From the NCBI RefSeq assembly GCF_000015585.1, contig NC_008789.1:2190001-2222000 (forward strand): a DNA stretch of 32,000 nt. The letters run 5' to 3'. The notes below the pieces were generated by a model that ran no database searches, was not told where the DNA came from, and saw only the letters and a list, made by a program, of their open reading frames with translations. Each line of letters begins with the position of its first letter. Positions within the stretch are counted from its first letter, which is position 1. Positions 7,257-14,749 of this stretch are shown in pieces. A program made the position numbers and the translations under genes. This DNA is from Halorhodospira halophila SL1. GTDB lineage: Bacteria; Pseudomonadota; Gammaproteobacteria; Nitrococcales; Halorhodospiraceae.

Positions 7257-8422
7257 GCGGCCGCCGGTCGGCCACCGCCATCGCCGAGGATCCCGCCCGG
7301 GCCAAGCGGCGTGTCACGCTGATCGGCGGGGTGATCAACCTGTTCCTTGGGTGCGGCAAGATTGCCGCCGGCTGGCTGGGCCAGTCCCAGGCCCTGGTGG
7401 TGGACGGGGTGCACTCCCTATCCGACCTGGCCTCCGACGCCCTGGTCTACGTGGCCGCCGCCTACGGCAGCCAGGAGGCGGACAGCGATCACCCCTACGG
7501 CCACGCCCGCATCGAGACCGCAGCGACCGCCGGCATCGGCGCCGTCCTCCTGCTGGTGGCCGCCGGGTTCATCTACGACGCCGTGCAGCGGCTGCTCATC
7601 ACCCCCGAGTCGCTGTGGGTGCCGGGCTGGCTGGCCCTGGGGGTGGCCCTCGCCTCGCTGGTCATCAAGGAGGGGCTCTACCACTACACCCGCTGGGTGG
7701 CCTACCGGGCGCACTCCAACCTGATCCACGCCAACGCCTGGCATCACCGCTCCGACGCCCTCTCGTCGGTGGTGGTCGTCGGCGGTATCGTCGGTGTCCT
7801 GCTCGGACTGCCGTGGCTCGACGCCGTGGCCGCCATCGTCGTGGCGGTAATGCTCGCCCACGTGGGGATCACCTTCGCCTGGCGGTCGGTCTGCGAGCTG
7901 GTGGACACCGGCCTCGACCCGGCCCAGGTCGCGCATATCGAGAGATTGGTCAGCGAGATCGACGGGGTCCGCGATGTCCACGGCCTGCGCAGCCGACACA
8001 TGGCCGAGGAGGCGCTCATCGACCTGCACATCCAGGTGGATCCGCGACTGAGTGTCTCCGAGGGCCACCGGGTCAGCGAGGCGGTGCGTCGGCGCATCAT
8101 CCAGGACATCGGGGTGGTGACCGAGGTGCTGGTCCACGTCGACCACGAACCGCCGCGCTGGGACGAGGCGACCGCTGCCCTGCCGCTGCGCGGCGTGGTG
8201 GAGCGCGACCTGCACGCCGCCTGGTCGGGTGTCGAGGGGGCCGACACCGTCGAGCGCGTCGATCTGCACTACATGGAGGGCCGCCTGGAGGTGGAACTCC
8301 ACCTGCCCTGGCGCCCCGACTGCGACGCCGCCGGGCTGCACCGGCGGGCCACACGGCTGGCCGAGGTTGCCGAGGGCCTGGCCTACGTCAGTGCCTGCCG
8401 GGTCCACTTCATTGGGCGCTGA
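7253..8422 (+). CDS. Cation diffusion facilitator (CDF) family exporter, YiiP/FieF-like, with an extra C-terminal module
   Basis: TM2 DLASD (DxxxD) and TM5 HHRSD (HxxxD) form the transport-site quartet. Signature SDHPYGHARIE. Cytoplasmic CTD VRDVHGLRSRH...LVHVDHEP is followed by ~89 further residues. GTG start overlaps the Fur-family stop. Confidence 0.9.
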   Translation: MSGRRSATAIAEDPARAKRRVTLIGGVINLFLGCGKIAAGWLGQSQALVVDGVHSLSDLASDALVYVAAAYGSQEADSDHPYGHARIETAATAGIGAVLLLVAAGFIYDAVQRLLITPESLWVPGWLALGVALASLVIKEGLYHYTRWVAYRAHSNLIHANAWHHRSDALSSVVVVGGIVGVLLGLPWLDAVAAIVVAVMLAHVGITFAWRSVCELVDTGLDPAQVAHIERLVSEIDGVRDVHGLRSRHMAEEALIDLHIQVDPRLSVSEGHRVSEAVRRRIIQDIGVVTEVLVHVDHEPPRWDEATAALPLRGVVERDLHAAWSGVEGADTVERVDLHYMEGRLEVELHLPWRPDCDAAGLHRRATRLAEVAEGLAYVSACRVHFIGR

Positions 8423-9395
8423 GCGGCGGTTCGGCCAGGGCGCCCAGCTGCTCGCGCAGCGCCAGCAGGTGCTCCTCCCAGTACCGGGGCTCAGCAAACC
8501 AGGGGAAGGCGCGGGGGAAGGCGGGATCCTCCCAGCGCTCCGCCAGCCACGCAGCGTGGCGTACCAGCCGCAGGGTGCGCAACGGCTCGATCAGGTGCAG
8601 CTCGCGCAGGTCGAGGTCGCAGAAGGTCCGGTACCCCTCGAGCACCGCCTCGAGGAAGGACTCGCGCTCGGCCCGCTCGCCGGGCAGCAGCATCCACAGA
8701 TCTTGGATGGCGGGACCGGTGCAGCTGTCGTCCAGGTCCACCAGGTGGAACCCCTCCTCGGTCTGCAGGACGTTGCCTGGGTGGAAGTCGCCGTGCAGAC
8801 GGATGGCGTGCACCGCCCCGGCCCGCTCCCAACAGGCGGCCATCGCCTCTAAGAGGTCGTCGGTGACCGTGCGGTACGCCTCCTCCAGGTGCGGCGGCAG
8901 CCAGTTTCCGGCCAGCAGCCAGTCCCGCGCCCGCCGGCCGTGGTCGCCCGGGTCGAGGCTGAGGCGATGATCGAAGGCCCCACCGCCACCCACGACGTGG
9001 ATCCGCCCCAGATAGGCCCCCAGGCGGCGGAGCACATCCCGGTTGTCCACCTCGAGCATGCGTCCGCCCCGCATGGGGTAGAGGGCAATGCGGAAACCGT
9101 GGCTGTGGGCCAGGGTCCCTGCCCCGCAGCGCAGCGGCGCTACCACCGGCACCTCGGCTGCCACCAACTCCTCGCTGAAGGCGTGCTCCTCGCGGATCTG
9201 CGCGTCGTCCCAGCGGTCGGGGCGGTAGAACTTGGCCACCACGGCCGGACCCCCCTCCACTCCGACCATGTACACCCGGTTCTCATAGCTGTTCAGGGGC
9301 AGTAGCCGGCCGTCGCTGCGTACCCCGCCCACGGCCTCGACCGCATTGAGGACGGTATCCGGATCCAGGGTCTCGAAGGGGTGGTGGGTTTCCAT
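8409..9395 (-). CDS. srkA: Stress response serine/threonine kinase SrkA (YihE/RdoA family)
   Basis: N-terminus FETLDPDTVLNAVEAVG...LPLNSYENRVYMV...AKFYRPDRW and catalytic region RLHGDFHPGNVL...LVDLDD match the YihE/aminoglycoside-phosphotransferase-like fold. The 3' end overlaps the convergent CDF gene by 14 nt. Confidence 0.88.
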   Translation of the reverse strand: METHHPFETLDPDTVLNAVEAVGGVRSDGRLLPLNSYENRVYMVGVEGGPAVVAKFYRPDRWDDAQIREEHAFSEELVAAEVPVVAPLRCGAGTLAHSHGFRIALYPMRGGRMLEVDNRDVLRRLGAYLGRIHVVGGGGAFDHRLSLDPGDHGRRARDWLLAGNWLPPHLEEAYRTVTDDLLEAMAACWERAGAVHAIRLHGDFHPGNVLQTEEGFHLVDLDDSCTGPAIQDLWMLLPGERAERESFLEAVLEGYRTFCDLDLRELHLIEPLRTLRLVRHAAWLAERWEDPAFPRAFPWFAEPRYWEEHLLALREQLGALAEPPLSAQ

Positions 9396-9530
9396 GGAGC
9401 GGCTCCTGCAGCAGGGCTTGGGTCACTTCGTTCGACCGGACGTCCCGGTCGGTGACGGGTCAGGGTAGCCCGCAGCCTGGTCGGCCGGCTATCCTTGGAC
9501 CCCTGAACGGTCAAGCAGGTGGAACATCCC

Positions 9531-9839
9531 ATGCGTATGCAGAACGTCGAGCGCGGGCCGATCGCTCGTGTGGCGGGCGTCATCGGGGCCATCGCCGTCA
9601 TCGCCCTGGCGGCGACGCTCGGCATCGTCATGCTGGCGGTCATGCTCGGTCTGGCGCTCATCGGTGCCGTGATCATCGCAGCGCGGACCTGGTGGCTGCG
9701 CCGCCAGATGCGTCGGGCCGCGGCCCGTGGCGAGGGTTTCGGCCACACCGCCCGCCCCGGGACACCGGCACACGGCCGGGTCATCGAAGGCGAATACAGT
9801 CGCGGCTCAAAGGACGACCCGCACCATCCGCGGCGTTGA
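9531..9839 (+). CDS. Small hypothetical membrane protein (two predicted TM helices, basic tail)
   Basis: High GC3 coding pattern. Hydrophobic stretch VAGVIGAIAVIALAATLGIVMLAVMLGLALIGAVIIAA followed by RTWWLRRQMRRAAARGE. AGGTGG lies ~10 nt upstream of ATG 9531; the track start at 9519 is GTG. Confidence 0.55.
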   Translation: MRMQNVERGPIARVAGVIGAIAVIALAATLGIVMLAVMLGLALIGAVIIAARTWWLRRQMRRAAARGEGFGHTARPGTPAHGRVIEGEYSRGSKDDPHHPRR

Positions 9840-9915
9840 GCCCGCCCCGGCGCAAGCGGCAGGAGCCGCCACGCCCCGGGGAGCGACCCGTTCGCCACAG
9901 GGGAGCTGAAACGGC

Positions 9916-10845
9916 GTGAAAGATCGTTTCACGGTCACCATCACCGACTTCCGCGGCGCCCGCCACTACTCGCTGCATCAGATCGCCAAGCGCTTCGCGC
10001 TGGCCCTGGCCGGAGCGGTGCTGTTGCTGCTGCTCGCCGGTGCCCTGGCCATCTACGCGCTCAACGACACGATCGATGAACTCGACCAGGTCCGCGCCGA
10101 GAAGGCGGAGGCCGCCCGCCAGATCGAGCTGCGCAACGAGCAGCTCCAGGATCTGGTCAGCGAACGCGAGCAGGAGATCCACCGCATGGATCTTGAACTC
10201 GGGCACATCGAGGCGCTGGTCGGGCTCGACCCGCAGCCCGAGGCCAACCGGCGCGAGCGACTCGACACCGCCAGCCAGACGGCGCTGGAAAAGGCGCTGA
10301 TGTTGCGGACGATCCCCAACGGCTGGCCCCTCAAGGAGGCGTCGCGGATCACCAGCGGCTACGGCTGGCGGACGCACCCGGTGACCGGCGAACGCTCCTT
10401 CCACGCCGCCGTCGATCTGCGCGCGCCGGTGGGCGAGAAGATCGTCGCCACTGCCGACGGCGTGGTCAACTACGCCGCCAAGCACCAGGGCAGCGGGCTC
10501 GGCAAGCTGGTCATCCTCGCCCACGACTTCGGCTTCCAGACCCACTACGCCCACCTGAGCAGGATCGAGGTCGAGACCGGCACGTTCGTCGAGGAGGGCG
10601 ACGTCATCGCCCGCTCCGGGGCCACGGGCAACGTCAACGGCCCCCACCTGCACTACGAGATCTGGCACACCCAGCGCAAGCTGAACCCGGAACCGTTTCT
10701 GGACTGGAGCCTGGACAACTATGAAGAGCTCTTTGAAGAAGAGGGCCGCGTAAAATGGGACTCATTGGCAAAGGGGATAAATCGAAGAGCCGAGGCCCTG
10801 GAACGACAGTTATCTGCGACGGCACGCGACTGGTCGGAGAACTGA
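9916..10845 (+). CDS. M23 (LytM-type) family metalloendopeptidase with N-terminal cytoplasmic peptide, one TM and a coiled coil
   Basis: Catalytic motifs are intact: HAAVD (HxxxD) and HLH in GPHLHYEIW (HxH). TM FALALAGAVLLLLLAGALAIYAL. Coiled coil DELDQVRAEKAEAARQIELRNEQLQDLVSEREQEI. GTG start. Confidence 0.9.
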   Translation: MKDRFTVTITDFRGARHYSLHQIAKRFALALAGAVLLLLLAGALAIYALNDTIDELDQVRAEKAEAARQIELRNEQLQDLVSEREQEIHRMDLELGHIEALVGLDPQPEANRRERLDTASQTALEKALMLRTIPNGWPLKEASRITSGYGWRTHPVTGERSFHAAVDLRAPVGEKIVATADGVVNYAAKHQGSGLGKLVILAHDFGFQTHYAHLSRIEVETGTFVEEGDVIARSGATGNVNGPHLHYEIWHTQRKLNPEPFLDWSLDNYEELFEEEGRVKWDSLAKGINRRAEALERQLSATARDWSEN

Positions 10846-11441
10846 CCCTGGAGTCGAACCTGCATCTGGACGGCCAGATCAAGGGCACCATCGTCTCGGA
10901 CCACGACGTCAGCATCGGTCATACCGGCCGCTTCGAGGGCAATATCAAGGCCCATCGGCTGCTGGTCAGCGGCTACGTCGAGGGGGTCATCGACTGCGCC
11001 AGCCTGGAGATCGTCGCCGAGGGACGGGTCTTCGGCGAGCTCCACAGCGATGACTTCATCATCGAGGCCGGCGGTCAGTTCCTCGGCGAGAGCCACCCCC
11101 GGCGCGAGGTGCCCTTGGCGGCGCTGCAGCACGAGGGCAGCCAAGCCTCCCAGCTGACCGGTCCGGCACAGCCCGAGTCCGATTCGGAGGCGACGCCCCA
11201 CCCTGACCCGGCGGCGGGCGCTGCCACCCGCGCTGAACCCGAAGCGGACCCGCCGCAGCCCGAGAGGCCGGACCCGGCGCCACGCCAACACGCCGAGCCA
11301 CCCCCGGACGACGCCTCCGGGACGACCGACGAGCCAACCCCCGACCCGGAGGACGAACCGGAGCAGGAAGCAGACTCCGAGCAGGAGCCATCCCGTCATT
11401 TCCGGCCCCAGCCCCGACAGACCTTCTGGGGACGACGCTGA
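10755..11441 (+). CDS. Bactofilin (DUF583 beta-helix) with a long Pro/Glu/Asp-rich C-terminal tail
   Basis: Repeating beta-helix pattern TVICDGTRLVGELTLESNLHLDGQIKGTIVSDHDVSIGHTGRFEGNIKAHRLLVSGYVEGVIDCASLEIVAEGRVFGEL. Lys-rich N-terminus MGLIGKGDKSKSRG. AGAGGG SD 9 nt upstream of the ATG. The first 91 nt overlap the M23 gene out of frame. Confidence 0.88.
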   Translation: MGLIGKGDKSKSRGPGTTVICDGTRLVGELTLESNLHLDGQIKGTIVSDHDVSIGHTGRFEGNIKAHRLLVSGYVEGVIDCASLEIVAEGRVFGELHSDDFIIEAGGQFLGESHPRREVPLAALQHEGSQASQLTGPAQPESDSEATPHPDPAAGAATRAEPEADPPQPERPDPAPRQHAEPPPDDASGTTDEPTPDPEDEPEQEADSEQEPSRHFRPQPRQTFWGRR

Positions 11442-11555
11442 TCGGTGGCGGCGCCGCCGGCCGCCTGTGCTAGCATGGCCGGCATCCGCTTGGGGATTCA
11501 GGGCACCTGAACGCCCAGAGAGAGACGGCGAACGGGCAACAGAGGGGGATACGCC

Positions 11556-12710
11556 GTGGAACGTTGCATTGGCCTGGACATGGGGTACGGGTTCATCAAG
11601 ATCGATGACGGCCGCGAGGGGCACGTATTCCCCAGCGTCGTCGGCGAGGGCGAATCGGGCATGCCGATGTCCCTGGGCGTGGCCCAGCGCAGCGGCAGCA
11701 GCGAGCTTCGCATCACCTACGGCGGCAAGAGCTACCTGCTCGGCGACTACGCCATCCGCCACTCCCGCCTGGCGCACCGGGGGCTGTCGCCCACCCGCGC
11801 CGAAGGGGACGACCTCAAGATCCTCTTCCTCGGTGCACTGAGCCTCTACGCCCGCGAGACCGTGAACAACTTCCACGTCGTCACCGGCCTGCCGCCGGGG
11901 CGCATGCACATGGCCGACGACCTGGTCCGCCAGCTGCGCGGCGACCATGAAGTCATCCGCCACGTGGGCGCGAGCCGCTTCGGGGTAAGCATCCGCCTGG
12001 AGCAGATTGAGGTGGTCCCGCAGCCGGTGGGCAGCTTCTGGGCCGAGGTGCTGGATGATCGGGGGCAGATCCGTGGTGATCACCCGCTGCTCAACGGCCG
12101 GGTCGGGATCATGGACATCGGCTTCCGGACCAGCGACTTCGCCACGGTCATCGATGGCGAGTACTCCCCGGGGTTCTGCAAGACGGTGCCGCTGGGCATC
12201 TCCTTCGGCTACGAGGAGATCGCCCAGGAGCTCTCTACCCAGTACGGGCTCGAGCGCGAGCAGTACACCCTGGACGAGGCCATCATCCAGGGGCAGGTGA
12301 ACGTCAACGGCCGCCCGGTGGACATCGTCGAGCTCCGCGATCGGATCTTCGGCGACATCGCCACCAAGCTGCTGGTCGAGGCGCGCTCGATGTGGCAGAT
12401 CCAGGAGTACGACCACATCATCATCACCGGCGGCGGCGGCCGGGTGCTTGAGCGCTACCTGCGTCCGGAACTCTCCCAGGCCCAGCTGGCCCAGGACTCC
12501 GTCACCGCCAACGCCCGCGGCTATTTCAACTGGGCCTACTTCAACGCCCAGCAGCGGGCCGCGGAGATGGGCCACGCCACGGAACAGAGTTCGGCAGAGG
12601 ACTACAGCTCCGGCAGCTACGGCACCGGGAGCACCACCTACAGCCGGGGGGGCGACGACGGCCGAGACAGCGCCGCCGTGCCGCAGTCGCGCAGCGGCAG
12701 CGAGGGCTGA
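11556..12710 (+). CDS. ParM/StbA-type actin-like ATPase (chromosomal, orphan)
   Basis: Actin-fold motifs in the correct order: phosphate-1 IGLDMGYGFIKI, connect-1 VVTGLPPG, phosphate-2 GIMDIGFRTSDFATV, adenosine HIIITGGGG, connect-2 ANARGYFNWA. Layout parallels R1 ParM as I recall it. GAGGGGG SD 8 nt before the GTG start. ~55-aa Ser/Gly/Tyr-rich tail. Confidence 0.8.
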   Translation: MERCIGLDMGYGFIKIDDGREGHVFPSVVGEGESGMPMSLGVAQRSGSSELRITYGGKSYLLGDYAIRHSRLAHRGLSPTRAEGDDLKILFLGALSLYARETVNNFHVVTGLPPGRMHMADDLVRQLRGDHEVIRHVGASRFGVSIRLEQIEVVPQPVGSFWAEVLDDRGQIRGDHPLLNGRVGIMDIGFRTSDFATVIDGEYSPGFCKTVPLGISFGYEEIAQELSTQYGLEREQYTLDEAIIQGQVNVNGRPVDIVELRDRIFGDIATKLLVEARSMWQIQEYDHIIITGGGGRVLERYLRPELSQAQLAQDSVTANARGYFNWAYFNAQQRAAEMGHATEQSSAEDYSSGSYGTGSTTYSRGGDDGRDSAAVPQSRSGSEG

Positions 12711-12754
12711 CCTCCTGCCGGCCGGGGCCTCGCCCCGGTGCCGGAACAGGCCAA

Positions 12755-12785
12755 GGGGCCGCGCCTCGGCGCGGCCCCTTTTTTT
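12755..12785 (+). terminator. Rho-independent terminator after the actin-like gene
   Basis: GGGGCCGCGC / GCGCGGCCCC perfect 10-bp stem, 4-nt loop, followed by seven Ts (12779-12785). A second 7-bp hairpin, CCGGGGC/GCCCCGG, lies at 12722-12738. Confidence 0.85.
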
Positions 12786-12802
12786 GATTGGGGCGGGTCA
12801 AT

Positions 12803-12870
12803 CTGCTGTTGCAACGCAGCACGGGCGGTGCTATGTTGCATCGCACAAGGCATGGCGAGCGGTCATGCCT
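12803..12870 (+). promoter_or_regulatory. Candidate operator/promoter/5'-UTR structure upstream of the phasin gene
   Basis: Two related palindromic elements share the core TGTTGCA-N-CGCA, spaced 27 bp apart: CTGC-T-GTTGCAAC-GCAG at 12803-12819, and GTGCTATG-TTG-CATCGCAC at 12828-12846 (7/8 arms). A further AGGCATG/CATGCCT hairpin lies at 12848-12870. All sit in the lowest-GC stretch of the window. Confidence 0.3.
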
Positions 12871-12898
12871 CGAGCAGCTTCAACAAGGAGAGAGACCC

Positions 12899-13366
12899 AT
12901 GCAAGACCAGCTCAACAAGTCCATGCAGCAGTTCCAGAAGATGATGGAGCCCAGCCGCAAGCTCAACGCGCTGCTCCTCGAGCACGCCGAGAAGGTGGCC
13001 CACCTGAACCTGGAAGCCGCCCGTTCCTACACCGATCTGGCCATGGAGCAGATGCGCAAGGCCATGGAGGTCCGGGACCCGGAGAGCTTCCAGAGCTACC
13101 TGAACGACCAGGGCAAGGTCGTCCAGACGATGAGCAACAAGCTCACGGAGAACGCCAGCACCCTGGCCGACATCAGCAAGAACATGGGCGAAGAGGTGCA
13201 GAAGATCGCCCAAGAGAACGTCTCCGCCCTCACCGAGACGATGCAGGGCCAGGCTGAGAAGGCCTCCGGCAAGGGCCGCAGCGCTGGCAGCAGTGCCGGT
13301 AGCAGCGCCTCTGCGGGTAGCAGCAGTGGCTCCGCTGCCTCCGGCAGCAGCAAGAAGTCCGCGTAA
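12899..13366 (+). CDS. phaP: Phasin family protein (PHA granule-associated)
   Basis: MQDQLNKSMQQFQKMMEPSRKLNALLLEHAEKVAHLNLEAARSYTDLAMEQMRKAMEVRDPESFQSYL is typical of the amphipathic phasin_2 type. AAGGAGAG SD precedes ATG 12899; the track ORF start at 12788 crosses the upstream terminator region. Ser/Ala/Gly-rich tail. Confidence 0.85.
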   Translation: MQDQLNKSMQQFQKMMEPSRKLNALLLEHAEKVAHLNLEAARSYTDLAMEQMRKAMEVRDPESFQSYLNDQGKVVQTMSNKLTENASTLADISKNMGEEVQKIAQENVSALTETMQGQAEKASGKGRSAGSSAGSSASAGSSSGSAASGSSKKSA

Positions 13367-13395
13367 CCCCCTCGGGGAGGCGCGGTGACGGAGTC

Positions 13396-13429
13396 GGTGC
13401 CCCGCGGGGCACCGGCTCCTTTGTGTTTT
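13396..13429 (+). terminator. Rho-independent terminator after the phasin gene, in the gap shared with convergent purD
   Basis: Perfect 18-nt palindrome GGTGCCCCGCGGGGCACC followed by the T-rich GGCTCCTTTGTGTTTT. The T tract is on the + strand only. Confidence 0.7.
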
Positions 13430-13459
13430 CAGCCCCGTAGGGCGAGACCTACCCCGCGG

Positions 13460-14749
13460 TCAGCCGGTCTCCCGGGCGATGGCCCGCGCACCGATATCCC
13501 GCCGGTAGAACACCCCTTCCCAATGGATGGCCGCCACCCCCCGGTAGGCCGCCTGCTGCGCTGCAGAGACACGCTCACCCAGCGCGCAACAGCACAGCAC
13601 CCGCCCCCCGTTGGTCACCACACGGCCGTCGGCGTCGAAGGTCGTGCCGCCGTGGAAGACCTTGCAGCCGGTGGCCTCGGCGTCGTCGAGCCCTTCGATG
13701 ACATCGCCCCGCTCCACCGACCCTGGATAGCCGGCCGCCGCCATCACCACGCCCACAGCAGGACGCGAGTCCCAGGCCAGATCCACCTCGCCCAGTCGCC
13801 CCTCGAGGGCGGCCCGGCAGACTTCGGCAAAATCCGCGTCCAGGCGCATCAACAGCGGCTGCGCCTCCGGGTCACCCAGGCGGCAGTTGTACTCCAGCAC
13901 CCGGGGGTTGCCGTCGGCGTCGATCATCAGTCCGGCGTAGAGGAAGCCCTGATAGGGGCGCCCCTCGGCGGCCAGCCCCTGGACCGTGGGGCGGATCACC
14001 TCGTCCATGACCCGCTGGTAGAGCTGCTCATCCATCAGCGGCGCCGGCGAATAGGCCCCCATACCACCGGTGTTGGGGCCCCGATCTCCGTCGTCCCGCG
14101 GCTTGTGATCCTGGGAGCTGGCCATCGCCACCACGTGCTCGCCATCGACCAGCGCGATGAAGCTCAGCTCCTCGCCCTGCAGGCACTCCTCGACCACGAC
14201 CCGCGCGCCGGCATCCCCGAAGGCCTGCCCCGAGAGCATGCGCTCGGCCGCCAATAGGGCCTCGTCCTTGGTCGCCGCCACCTCGACCCCCTTGCCGGAG
14301 GCCAGGCCGTCCGCCTTGATGACCATCGGCGTCGAGTGCTCGCGGATATAGTCGCTGGCCGCCCCCAGGTCGTCGAAGGTGCGGTAGGCGGCCGTTGGCA
14401 CCCCGTGACGCGCCATGAACGCCTTGGCAAACGCCTTCGAGCCCTCCAGCTCGGCGGCGTCCGCCGTCGGCCCCAGACACGCCAGACCCGCCTGCTGGAA
14501 GGCGTCCACCACGCCGGCCACCAGGGGCGCCTCGGGGCCGACCACGGTCAAAGCCACCTCCTGCTCGCGGGCCTGTTGGACCAGCGCGGGGATATCCTCC
14601 GCCCCCACCTGGATGTTGCGCACCTTGGGCTCGCGCTCCGTGCCGGCATTCCCCGGGGCGACCAGCACCTCCTCGACCTGCTTGGAGCGCGCCAGGGCCC
14701 AGGCCATGGCGTGCTCGCGGCCGCCCCCTCCGATCACCAGTACCTTCAT
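13460..14749 (-). CDS. purD: Phosphoribosylamine--glycine ligase
   Basis: MKVLVIGGGGREHAMAWALARS..., an ATP-grasp core, and the C-terminus GGRVLCCCALGE...AYRGVAAIHWEGVFYRRDIG. Full-length PurD pattern. Confidence 0.97.
   Translation of the reverse strand: MKVLVIGGGGREHAMAWALARSKQVEEVLVAPGNAGTEREPKVRNIQVGAEDIPALVQQAREQEVALTVVGPEAPLVAGVVDAFQQAGLACLGPTADAAELEGSKAFAKAFMARHGVPTAAYRTFDDLGAASDYIREHSTPMVIKADGLASGKGVEVAATKDEALLAAERMLSGQAFGDAGARVVVEECLQGEELSFIALVDGEHVVAMASSQDHKPRDDGDRGPNTGGMGAYSPAPLMDEQLYQRVMDEVIRPTVQGLAAEGRPYQGFLYAGLMIDADGNPRVLEYNCRLGDPEAQPLLMRLDADFAEVCRAALEGRLGEVDLAWDSRPAVGVVMAAAGYPGSVERGDVIEGLDDAEATGCKVFHGGTTFDADGRVVTNGGRVLCCCALGERVSAAQQAAYRGVAAIHWEGVFYRRDIGARAIARETG

Follow-up and report, generated by a model that had tools for sequence, protein, structure and literature searches.

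A window of 32,000 nucleotides (nt) from the chromosome of Halorhodospira halophila SL1 (contig NC_008789.1, positions 2,190,001 to 2,222,000; chromosome 2,678,452 bp) carries a gene for a ParM-like actin of 384 amino acids (aa), located at 11556-12710 on the plus strand of the window, with a GTG start (ABM62761 / WP_011814783, annotated in the databases as "ParM/StbA family protein"). The best overall explanation, to which we give a probability of about 0.6, is that this gene represents a clade of actins lacking ParR and parC that is coupled to a dedicated bactofilin serving as adaptor. ParM-family actins are understood almost entirely as plasmid segregation motors needing ParR and a centromere, and bactofilins are known as scaffolds for cell-wall enzymes.

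Homologues of the actin were found in Halorhodospira (75-97% identity), in other Ectothiorhodospiraceae (56-67%) and in Bacillota (40-53%; Symbiobacterium, Tepidanaerobacter and several Clostridia lineages), and in all these groups they sit on chromosome-sized contigs. Their gene neighbourhoods were analysed in 79 loci taken from one-genome-per-species contigs, in which all open reading frames (ORFs) were scored with an iterated bactofilin profile; 61 of the loci, 17 from Ectothiorhodospiraceae and 44 from core Bacillota, were counted as belonging to the family. This revealed a same-strand bactofilin gene directly adjoining the actin gene in 51 of the 61 family loci, in two phyla, which overturns the description of the gene as an orphan in the first-pass annotation of the window. 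The bactofilin gene adjoins in 12 of the 17 Ectothiorhodospiraceae loci, always upstream and with a gap of 68-148 nt, and in 39 of the 44 core Bacillota loci, in all 39 downstream and with a gap of -211 to +150 nt (in Symbiobacterium thermophilum it begins 6 nt after the actin gene, and locus L026 has an additional short bactofilin upstream of the actin). All 61 ORFs scanned against Pfam Bactofilin passed, and no bactofilin neighbour was found for the more distant actins (< ~225 bits). The two phyla have the actin and bactofilin genes in opposite order, which makes simple inheritance of synteny an unlikely cause of the adjacency. A functional coupling of the actin to the bactofilin is probable.

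When the neighbouring genes were clustered, setting aside antisense and out-of-frame ORFs overlapping the actin and the bactofilin, bactofilin was the sole neighbour family conserved clade-wide. M23 peptidases recur in Halorhodospira and in three of the Bacillota loci (L026, L044 and L046). In a neighbour-joining tree the bactofilin-linked actins form a clade apart from the unlinked outgroup actins, with a few unlinked members nested within the clade, and Ectothiorhodospiraceae come out as sister to Symbiobacteriaceae, a placement that would fit an inter-phylum transfer, which the neighbour-joining tree alone is insufficient to establish.

The proteins encoded at 9916-12710 (M23 peptidase, bactofilin and actin) are 100% identical to ABM62759, ABM62760 and ABM62761, respectively, and the features of this part of the window are:

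9916..10845, plus strand: LmdC-like M23 metallopeptidase, 309 aa (Pfam Peptidase_M23, E 6.8e-30)
10755..11441, plus strand: bactofilin, 228 aa (Pfam Bactofilin, E 1.8e-22)
11418..11438, plus strand: codons of the bactofilin tip QTFWGRR, a candidate actin-docking peptide (conservation of W225)
11442..11555, plus strand: 114-nt spacer between bactofilin and actin, without iterons, with a conserved TGTGCTAGCAT and a Shine-Dalgarno sequence
11556..12581, plus strand: ParM/Alp-type actin core, aa 1-342 (ALP_N and MreB-like_C; AlphaFold2; Foldseek)
12582..12710, plus strand: C-terminal tail of the actin, aa 343-384, and stop codon; Ser/Gly/Tyr/Asp-rich, disordered in the AlphaFold2 model
12753..12790, plus strand: intrinsic terminator with a 12-bp stem (10 GC pairs), a 4-nt loop and a T-run

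The bactofilin tail and its terminal motif

The bactofilin of the window starts with the sequence MGLIGKGDKSK, which resembles a membrane-targeting sequence (MTS; the consensus is MFSKKKK (PMC12448750), where the window bactofilin has MGLIGKGDK), and continues with a beta-helix core at aa 17-115 (nt 10803-11099) that AlphaFold2 models with a predicted local distance difference test score (pLDDT) of ~97. The remaining 113 residues (aa 116-228) form a tail rich in Pro, Glu, Ala and Asp with no predicted structure (pLDDT 52-72). Among the partner bactofilins the tails range from 32 to 203 aa and are not conserved in sequence, yet they share a conserved aromatic tip. The Clostridia-like partners (n=34) end with F-x-x-S-[FY]-COOH, with F at position -5 and S, T or V at -2 in 34/34 and F or Y at -1 in 32/34, and the Symbiobacteriaceae partners have F-x-G-x-aromatic near the C-terminal end. 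In Halorhodospira the ending is [FVT]-W-G-R-[RH] (QTFWGRR in the window) and in Aquisalimonas-like partners R-R-W-[RS]. In the 12 gammaproteobacterial partners W225 is the only invariant residue beyond ~100 non-conserved tail residues. Second bactofilins that accompany M23 genes in the Bacillota loci are short and have no tail.

Searching with a profile of the gammaproteobacterial partners revealed two classes of close bactofilin orthologue, one of 190-230 residues ending with WGRR or RRW[RS] and one of 140-177 residues without the tip motif. The actin gene is next door in all 13 cases where the context of a motif-bearing gammaproteobacterial bactofilin is known, and absent in all six of the motif-less orthologues that were looked up, where the long tail is also absent and the synteny is otherwise the same: Fpg-bactofilin in L084, L086 and L087 compared with Fpg-bactofilin-actin in L011, L012, L014, L017 and L021, and APH-M23-bactofilin in L085 and M23-bactofilin in L088 compared with APH-M23-bactofilin-actin in the window. 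The co-occurrence of motif and actin (Fisher ~4e-5, uncorrected for phylogeny), 13/13 versus 0/6, argues that the long tail and the tip motif come and go together with the actin.

Some further observations were made on partner bactofilins and family loci. In S. thermophilum (AP006840.1; L001 ~7300-7780) the annotated bactofilin ends with ...VGAGGV and the conserved tail motif TIVFRGYMRTKRR is encoded in another frame of this stretch, which indicates that the GC-rich tail region contains a frameshift, either genuine or due to an error in sequencing. In two Aquisalimonas-like loci (L015 and L020) the actin gene comes immediately after the Fpg gene, with a gap of ~180 nt and no bactofilin in between, and as sister genomes have Fpg-bactofilin-actin or Fpg-bactofilin, three locus states exist in one family. 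An apparent "Rosetta stone" fusion of actin and bactofilin (P0077, L002 4156-5613, from a Symbiobacterium-like metagenome-assembled genome; 10 member sequences in the protein cluster) was rejected as evidence, since it reflects adjacency and not a functional fusion and would make a poor target for structure prediction: an in-frame deletion of ~120 nt takes the last helix of the actin and the intergenic gap and joins the actin to Met1 of the bactofilin (GDPH-MFGWRRK).

A protein of ~1,500-1,700 aa is encoded near the actin gene in 13 Bacillota loci (L031, L041, L044, L046-L050, L053, L054, L058, L060 and L068), in 11 of them upstream and on the same strand. Inspected by eye, the one in L041 appears to combine a kinase-like N-terminus with an AAA/STAND-like region, repeats, a GAF-like region and, at the C-terminus, a histidine-kinase-like module, and proteins of this kind may regulate the actin-bactofilin module. 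Four loci (L080-L083) belong to a more distant ParM-like clade (30-33% identity) without bactofilin, where the actin gene is followed by two conserved ORFs of ~140 aa and ~282 aa; by eye the upstream ORFs on the opposite strand look FtsE-like and FtsX-like, with an M23 match beyond them in 2/4 loci. These loci appear to hold a further chromosomal actin module devoid of ParR.

Proposed mechanism and points against it

In the mechanism that we propose, the beta-helix core and MTS-like N-terminus of the bactofilin would let it assemble, independently of nucleotides, into a polymer associated with the membrane, from which each subunit would project its disordered tail of ~100 residues ending in the aromatic motif. 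The terminal peptide would dock on the actin, by which the bactofilin polymer would fill the adaptor role of ParR/parC and anchor or nucleate ATP-driven actin filaments at a fixed site of the envelope. The chances that the tail tip is a docking peptide for the actin are about even.

Residues that are invariant in the linked clade were compared with ten outgroup actins, and G22, S78, R116, H118, W162, G231, I244, T317 and W326 were found to differ in 9-10 of the 10. W162 is located six residues past the invariant Q156 of the catalytic loop, in the helix following the catalytic strand, and W326 in the last helix of the actin (residues 318-347 in an AlphaFold2 model built from the alignment of 104 family sequences). 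The helices carrying the two tryptophans would correspond to the two elements lining a hydrophobic cleft that actin and ParM have between subdomains IA and IIA, and in the structure of R1 ParM with a ParR peptide (4a62) the peptide reportedly binds in this very cleft. The binding hypothesis offered is a 7-residue peptide docking on two clade-specific tryptophans.

In Halorhodospira the pair of actin and bactofilin would have been added to a native module of an LmdC-type M23 hydrolase and a bactofilin. The bactofilin gene directly adjoins the M23 gene and both products score over the Pfam cut-offs, the arrangement that characterises BacA-LmdC. According to its translation the M23 protein has a 26-aa N-terminal tail, a hydrophobic helix at ~aa 27-49 and a coiled-coil-like stretch; its M23 domain, which contains HxxxD and HLH motifs, covers aa 162-258. 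Its NCBIfam matches to ShyA, MepM, Pgp3 and DipM are all under the cut-off. The ORFs of the M23 peptidase and the bactofilin share 91 nt (10755-10845), read in different frames, possibly reflecting translational coupling. An overlap of ~91 nt is also present in the actin-less loci L085 and L088 (M23 at 3141-4091/4100 and bactofilin from 4001), and since it occurs in these relatives it appears to be a conserved trait of the gammaproteobacterial M23-bactofilin pair. The three gene products would then probably cooperate in shaping the cell or remodelling its wall locally, although we hold a cell-wall or shape role in Halorhodospira only tentatively, at somewhat less than even odds.

Several observations weigh against the proposed mechanism. 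The tip differs by clade (F-x-x-S-F, F-x-G, WGRR and RRW), so one shared docking mode is not guaranteed. The cores of the gammaproteobacterial partners are native, with 37-52% identity to tail-less gammaproteobacterial orthologues versus ~20-24% to the Symbiobacteriaceae partners, so that the tail motif would need to have arisen or been grafted independently. In an hhalign comparison meant to place W162 and W326 on the target-binding cleft of eukaryotic actin, the alignment covered just the N-terminal phosphate-1 region (probability 25%), and the two residues are assigned to the cleft by the order of secondary-structure elements. An M23 gene is present in only 11 linked loci (eight from Halorhodospira, including the window, and three from Bacillota), so that a cell-wall role is not generalisable. 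Furthermore, 10 of the 61 members have no adjacent bactofilin (Ectothiorhodospira, Natronospira, L015, L019, L020 and the L032 group), and a word-seeded profile search, which does not prove absence, gave no bactofilin with the W motif attributable to these genera. The actin may accordingly work without a bactofilin, or the partner may be encoded elsewhere. No sign of relaxed constraint was seen in the 10 unlinked actins, nearly all clade-specific residues being kept, a null result that neither confirms nor excludes a partner encoded elsewhere.

The retention of these residues in the unlinked actins and the variation of the tip between clades would also fit a reading in which the two genes are co-inherited as a cassette, the actin serving a cargo of its own (the chromosome, another organelle or a polar complex) and the tail motif serving contact with membrane or lipid, self-regulation of assembly or as a C-terminal degron. 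Known bactofilin clients, moreover, often bind the core and not the tail (PMC12448750). Set against this are the restriction of tail and motif to bactofilins beside an actin, the survival of the adjacency through a reversal of gene order and the coexistence of tail-less second bactofilins in the same loci, and we regard an actin with a separate cargo as unlikely, though it is the strongest of the alternatives.

H. halophila cells are spiral. Extending the bactofilin-as-adaptor reading, one can picture a composite cytoskeleton of two polymers, in which a non-polar, nucleotide-independent bactofilin scaffold would act as a protein "centromere", its flexible tails capturing a dynamic ParM-type filament by means of the aromatic end peptide. 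The two genes would form a mobile cassette of Bacillota and Ectothiorhodospiraceae, possibly transferred between them, which in Halorhodospira would be plugged into the native LmdC-BacA module and shape the spiral cell. This full picture is speculative and has clearly less than an even chance of being right as a whole.

The actin gene, its flanking DNA and its fold

The gene almost certainly encodes a ParR-less chromosomal ParM-type actin. Pfam ALP_N matches aa 6-159 (E 2.3e-34, 119 bits against a cut-off of 26.3) and MreB-like_C aa 185-302 (E 1.4e-14), in agreement with the ParM/StbA assignment of the first-pass annotation. The five actin-fold motifs it had listed are indeed all present and in order, and they are invariant or nearly so in the alignment of 104 family sequences: phosphate-1 (G6/D8/G10/G12/K15), connect-1 (V109-T110-G111-L112-P113), phosphate-2 (D187/G189/T192/D194), adenosine (G292-G294) and connect-2 (T317-A318-N319/G322). 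The NCBIfam matches of the actin, including one to PRTRC_D, are all sub-threshold; the closest model is ParM PRK13917, with 81 bits against a cut-off of 417, and FcmB gives 43 bits against 300.

The actin gene is flanked by gaps of 114 nt upstream and 188 nt downstream, with bactofilin and phasin as neighbours, which leaves no space for a ParR gene, and no adjacent gene for a ribbon-helix-helix adaptor was found. The spacer at 11442-11555 has no tandem repeats or iterons, only short palindromes, and no repeat array of the parC type was found in 11300-11700 or in 9000-13500. A ParR or iterons overlooked at first reading, named beforehand as a finding that would speak against the earlier interpretation, were thus not detected. 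Nor is the locus situated on a plasmid, phage or low-copy replicon: it is chromosomal, as had been claimed, the wider neighbourhood is of housekeeping type (RND efflux, CDF, APH, purD, purH and Mur ligase) and no Pfam domain typical of plasmids or phages was found in the neighbouring genes examined. Among 72,556 plasmids and 50,697 phages the closest relatives are just 27-31% identical. The locus fails every defining test of a ParMRC partition system. One alternative, a ParMRC system that has degenerated or been relocated and serves the segregation of DNA (the chromosome or an integrated element), with ParR and centromere overlooked or encoded elsewhere, would agree with PRK13917 being the closest NCBIfam model and with the nearest solved relatives being plasmid ParMs and chromosomal cParMs, mostly with ParR-like neighbours (PMC12270681). 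It is made very improbable by the lack of space for ParR and of iterons, by the score of PRK13917 far under its cut-off, by the absence of mobile-element domains and of any plasmid or phage homologue over 31% identity, and by the conserved neighbour in 51 loci being a bactofilin and not a ribbon-helix-helix protein.

When analysing the flanking DNA, a Shine-Dalgarno sequence (GGGGGA) was identified at 11544-11549, ahead of the actin gene. The sequence TGTGCTAGCAT at 11466-11476 is kept in 6/7 Halorhodospira loci, the remaining spacer being divergent, and can be read as an extended -10 box (TGTGnTAnnAT) or as an operator, with the perfect palindrome TGCTAGCA at 11468-11475. Its conservation within a diverged spacer suggests a promoter or regulator site of the actin gene's own. 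An Rfam scan of the window gave zero matches. No terminator-like site was found between the M23, bactofilin and actin genes, and the GC-rich hairpin with its T-run at 12753-12780, the terminator already noticed directly after the actin gene, would close the M23-bactofilin-actin unit.

Two candidates for a cargo had been proposed from proximity, of which the evidence supports the bactofilin/M23 machinery and not the phasin. The phasin gene begins at 12899, 188 nt past the stop codon of the actin, and a downstream ORF matching it recurs in the Halorhodospira loci, which are the points in favour of a filament that positions polyhydroxyalkanoate granules. The strong terminator between the two genes, and the confinement of the phasin-matching ORF to Halorhodospira with none in other Ectothiorhodospiraceae or Bacillota loci, led to the rejection of this link, which we consider hardly credible.

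The AlphaFold2 model of the actin has a mean pLDDT of 87.2 and a predicted template modelling (TM) score of 0.83, with pLDDT >90 across most of the core. A Foldseek search of the PDB gave best matches with E 1e-22 to 1e-19 and TM 0.64-0.83, led by pCBH ParM (6ixw and 6izr), Dh-cParM1 (8x1i), pSK41 ParM (3js6), CorM (9rmi) and Ta0583 (2fsk listed), followed by B. thuringiensis ParM, Alp7A, Alp12, R1 ParM and then MreB. A profile search of the PDB sequences agrees (6izr, E 9.5e-35). The protein is not assigned to MreB, as there is no Pfam MreB_Mbl match and the MreB structures rank beneath all ParM/Alp structures. A non-polymerising enzyme or chaperone with the ASKHA fold (sugar kinase, Hsp70 or EutJ type), the outcome that the first-pass annotation had named as refuting its assignment, has nothing in its favour beyond the common superfamily fold and is extremely improbable, given that at least the top 20 fold matches are filament-forming ParM, Alp or Ta0583, with no kinase or Hsp70 near the top, and that the Pfam match is to ALP_N. 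From these comparisons we infer a polymerising ParM-family actin of a distinct chromosomal clade.

From about residue 341 through 384 the pLDDT of the actin drops to 49-62. The disorder that had been proposed for the C-terminal tail is hence borne out, and its length is to be corrected from ~55 aa to ~42 aa (residues 343-384). The number of residues past the end of the profile has a median of 38 in gammaproteobacteria versus ~4 in Bacillota, and the tail sequence varies even inside Halorhodospira. The disordered tail is specific to Ectothiorhodospiraceae. Speculatively, its role may lie in tuning of bundling, in the manner of the disordered region of CorM. Within the stretch of the gene that codes for the tail, an in-frame tandem repeat is located at 12602-12632 (period 15, 2.1 copies), and another one is found at 13274-13309 (period 12, 3 copies) in the Ser/Gly/Ala-rich C-terminus of the phasin; both short repeats would fit low-complexity tails growing through slippage.

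Comparison with known systems

To our knowledge, CorMR is the one chromosomal ParM system shown, only recently, to be repurposed for cell shape. The pairing of actin and bactofilin, conserved in >50 genomes, suggests a direct coupling of two different cytoskeletal polymers and that the DNA adaptor of a ParM was lost a second time, independently and in another way; members of the bactofilin-linked clade are misleadingly labelled "plasmid segregation protein ParM" in databases. The pairing was not found described in a literature search that included the JBC survey of chromosomal ParMs, where bactofilin is not mentioned, the preprint on CorMR and the papers on LmdC and on bactofilins at the membrane; most subscription journals were outside the search and a prior mention is possible.

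The plasmid systems ParMRC (R1, pSK41 and pCBH) and the chromosomal cParMR (Dh-cParM1; PMC12270681) have the same actin fold and the closed-barrel ParM architecture, and include the best matches in both sequence and structure. In these systems an adaptor peptide captures the filament. The H. halophila locus differs from them in having no ParR, no parC iterons and no mobile-element context, with a bactofilin as the conserved partner.

The adjacent genes for an M23 peptidase and a bactofilin in the window are reminiscent of BacA-LmdC (PMC10945521) and of CcmA/Csd1 in Helicobacter. In Hyphomonas and Rhodospirillum BacA binds the M23 enzyme LmdC, and this type of module controls local cell-wall remodelling and curvature (PMC10945521). 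Judged by its translation, the M23 protein of the window resembles LmdC in having an N-terminal cytoplasmic tail, one transmembrane helix, a coiled coil and an M23 domain. BacA-LmdC, however, consists of two parts and no actin-like protein, whereas the window adds a third gene and a long bactofilin tail with a terminal motif.

Recruitment through a bactofilin tail has a parallel in Myxococcus xanthus, where, according to the account cited in PMC12448750, BacP binds PadC via a conserved motif in its long disordered C-terminal tail. As described there, BacP-PadC-ParA would resemble the present proposal in that a bactofilin recruits a soluble client through a short motif in a long tail, and differ from it in that the client is an adaptor for the ParA ATPase and not an actin, and the motif KKKVVVKK and not an aromatic tip.

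The closest likeness is to CorMR of Anabaena sp. PCC 7120 (10.1101/2025.06.27.661541; PDB 9rmi). CorM is a clear structural and sequence relative of the H. halophila actin and likewise a chromosomal ParM-family actin, one that no longer segregates DNA. CorR carries a membrane helix at its N-terminus and binds CorM with a C-terminal peptide, and CorMR controls cell shape, with an added disordered region in CorM modulating assembly (10.1101/2025.06.27.661541). This region is N-terminal in CorM and C-terminal in the H. halophila actin, and CorMR is cyanobacterial whereas the bactofilin-linked clade occurs in Bacillota and Ectothiorhodospiraceae. The main difference lies in the adaptor, CorR being a ParR homologue that forms a ribbon-helix-helix dimer, where here it would be a self-polymerising bactofilin. 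By analogy, the system of H. halophila would work most like CorMR, with an unrelated adaptor that is itself a cytoskeletal polymer.

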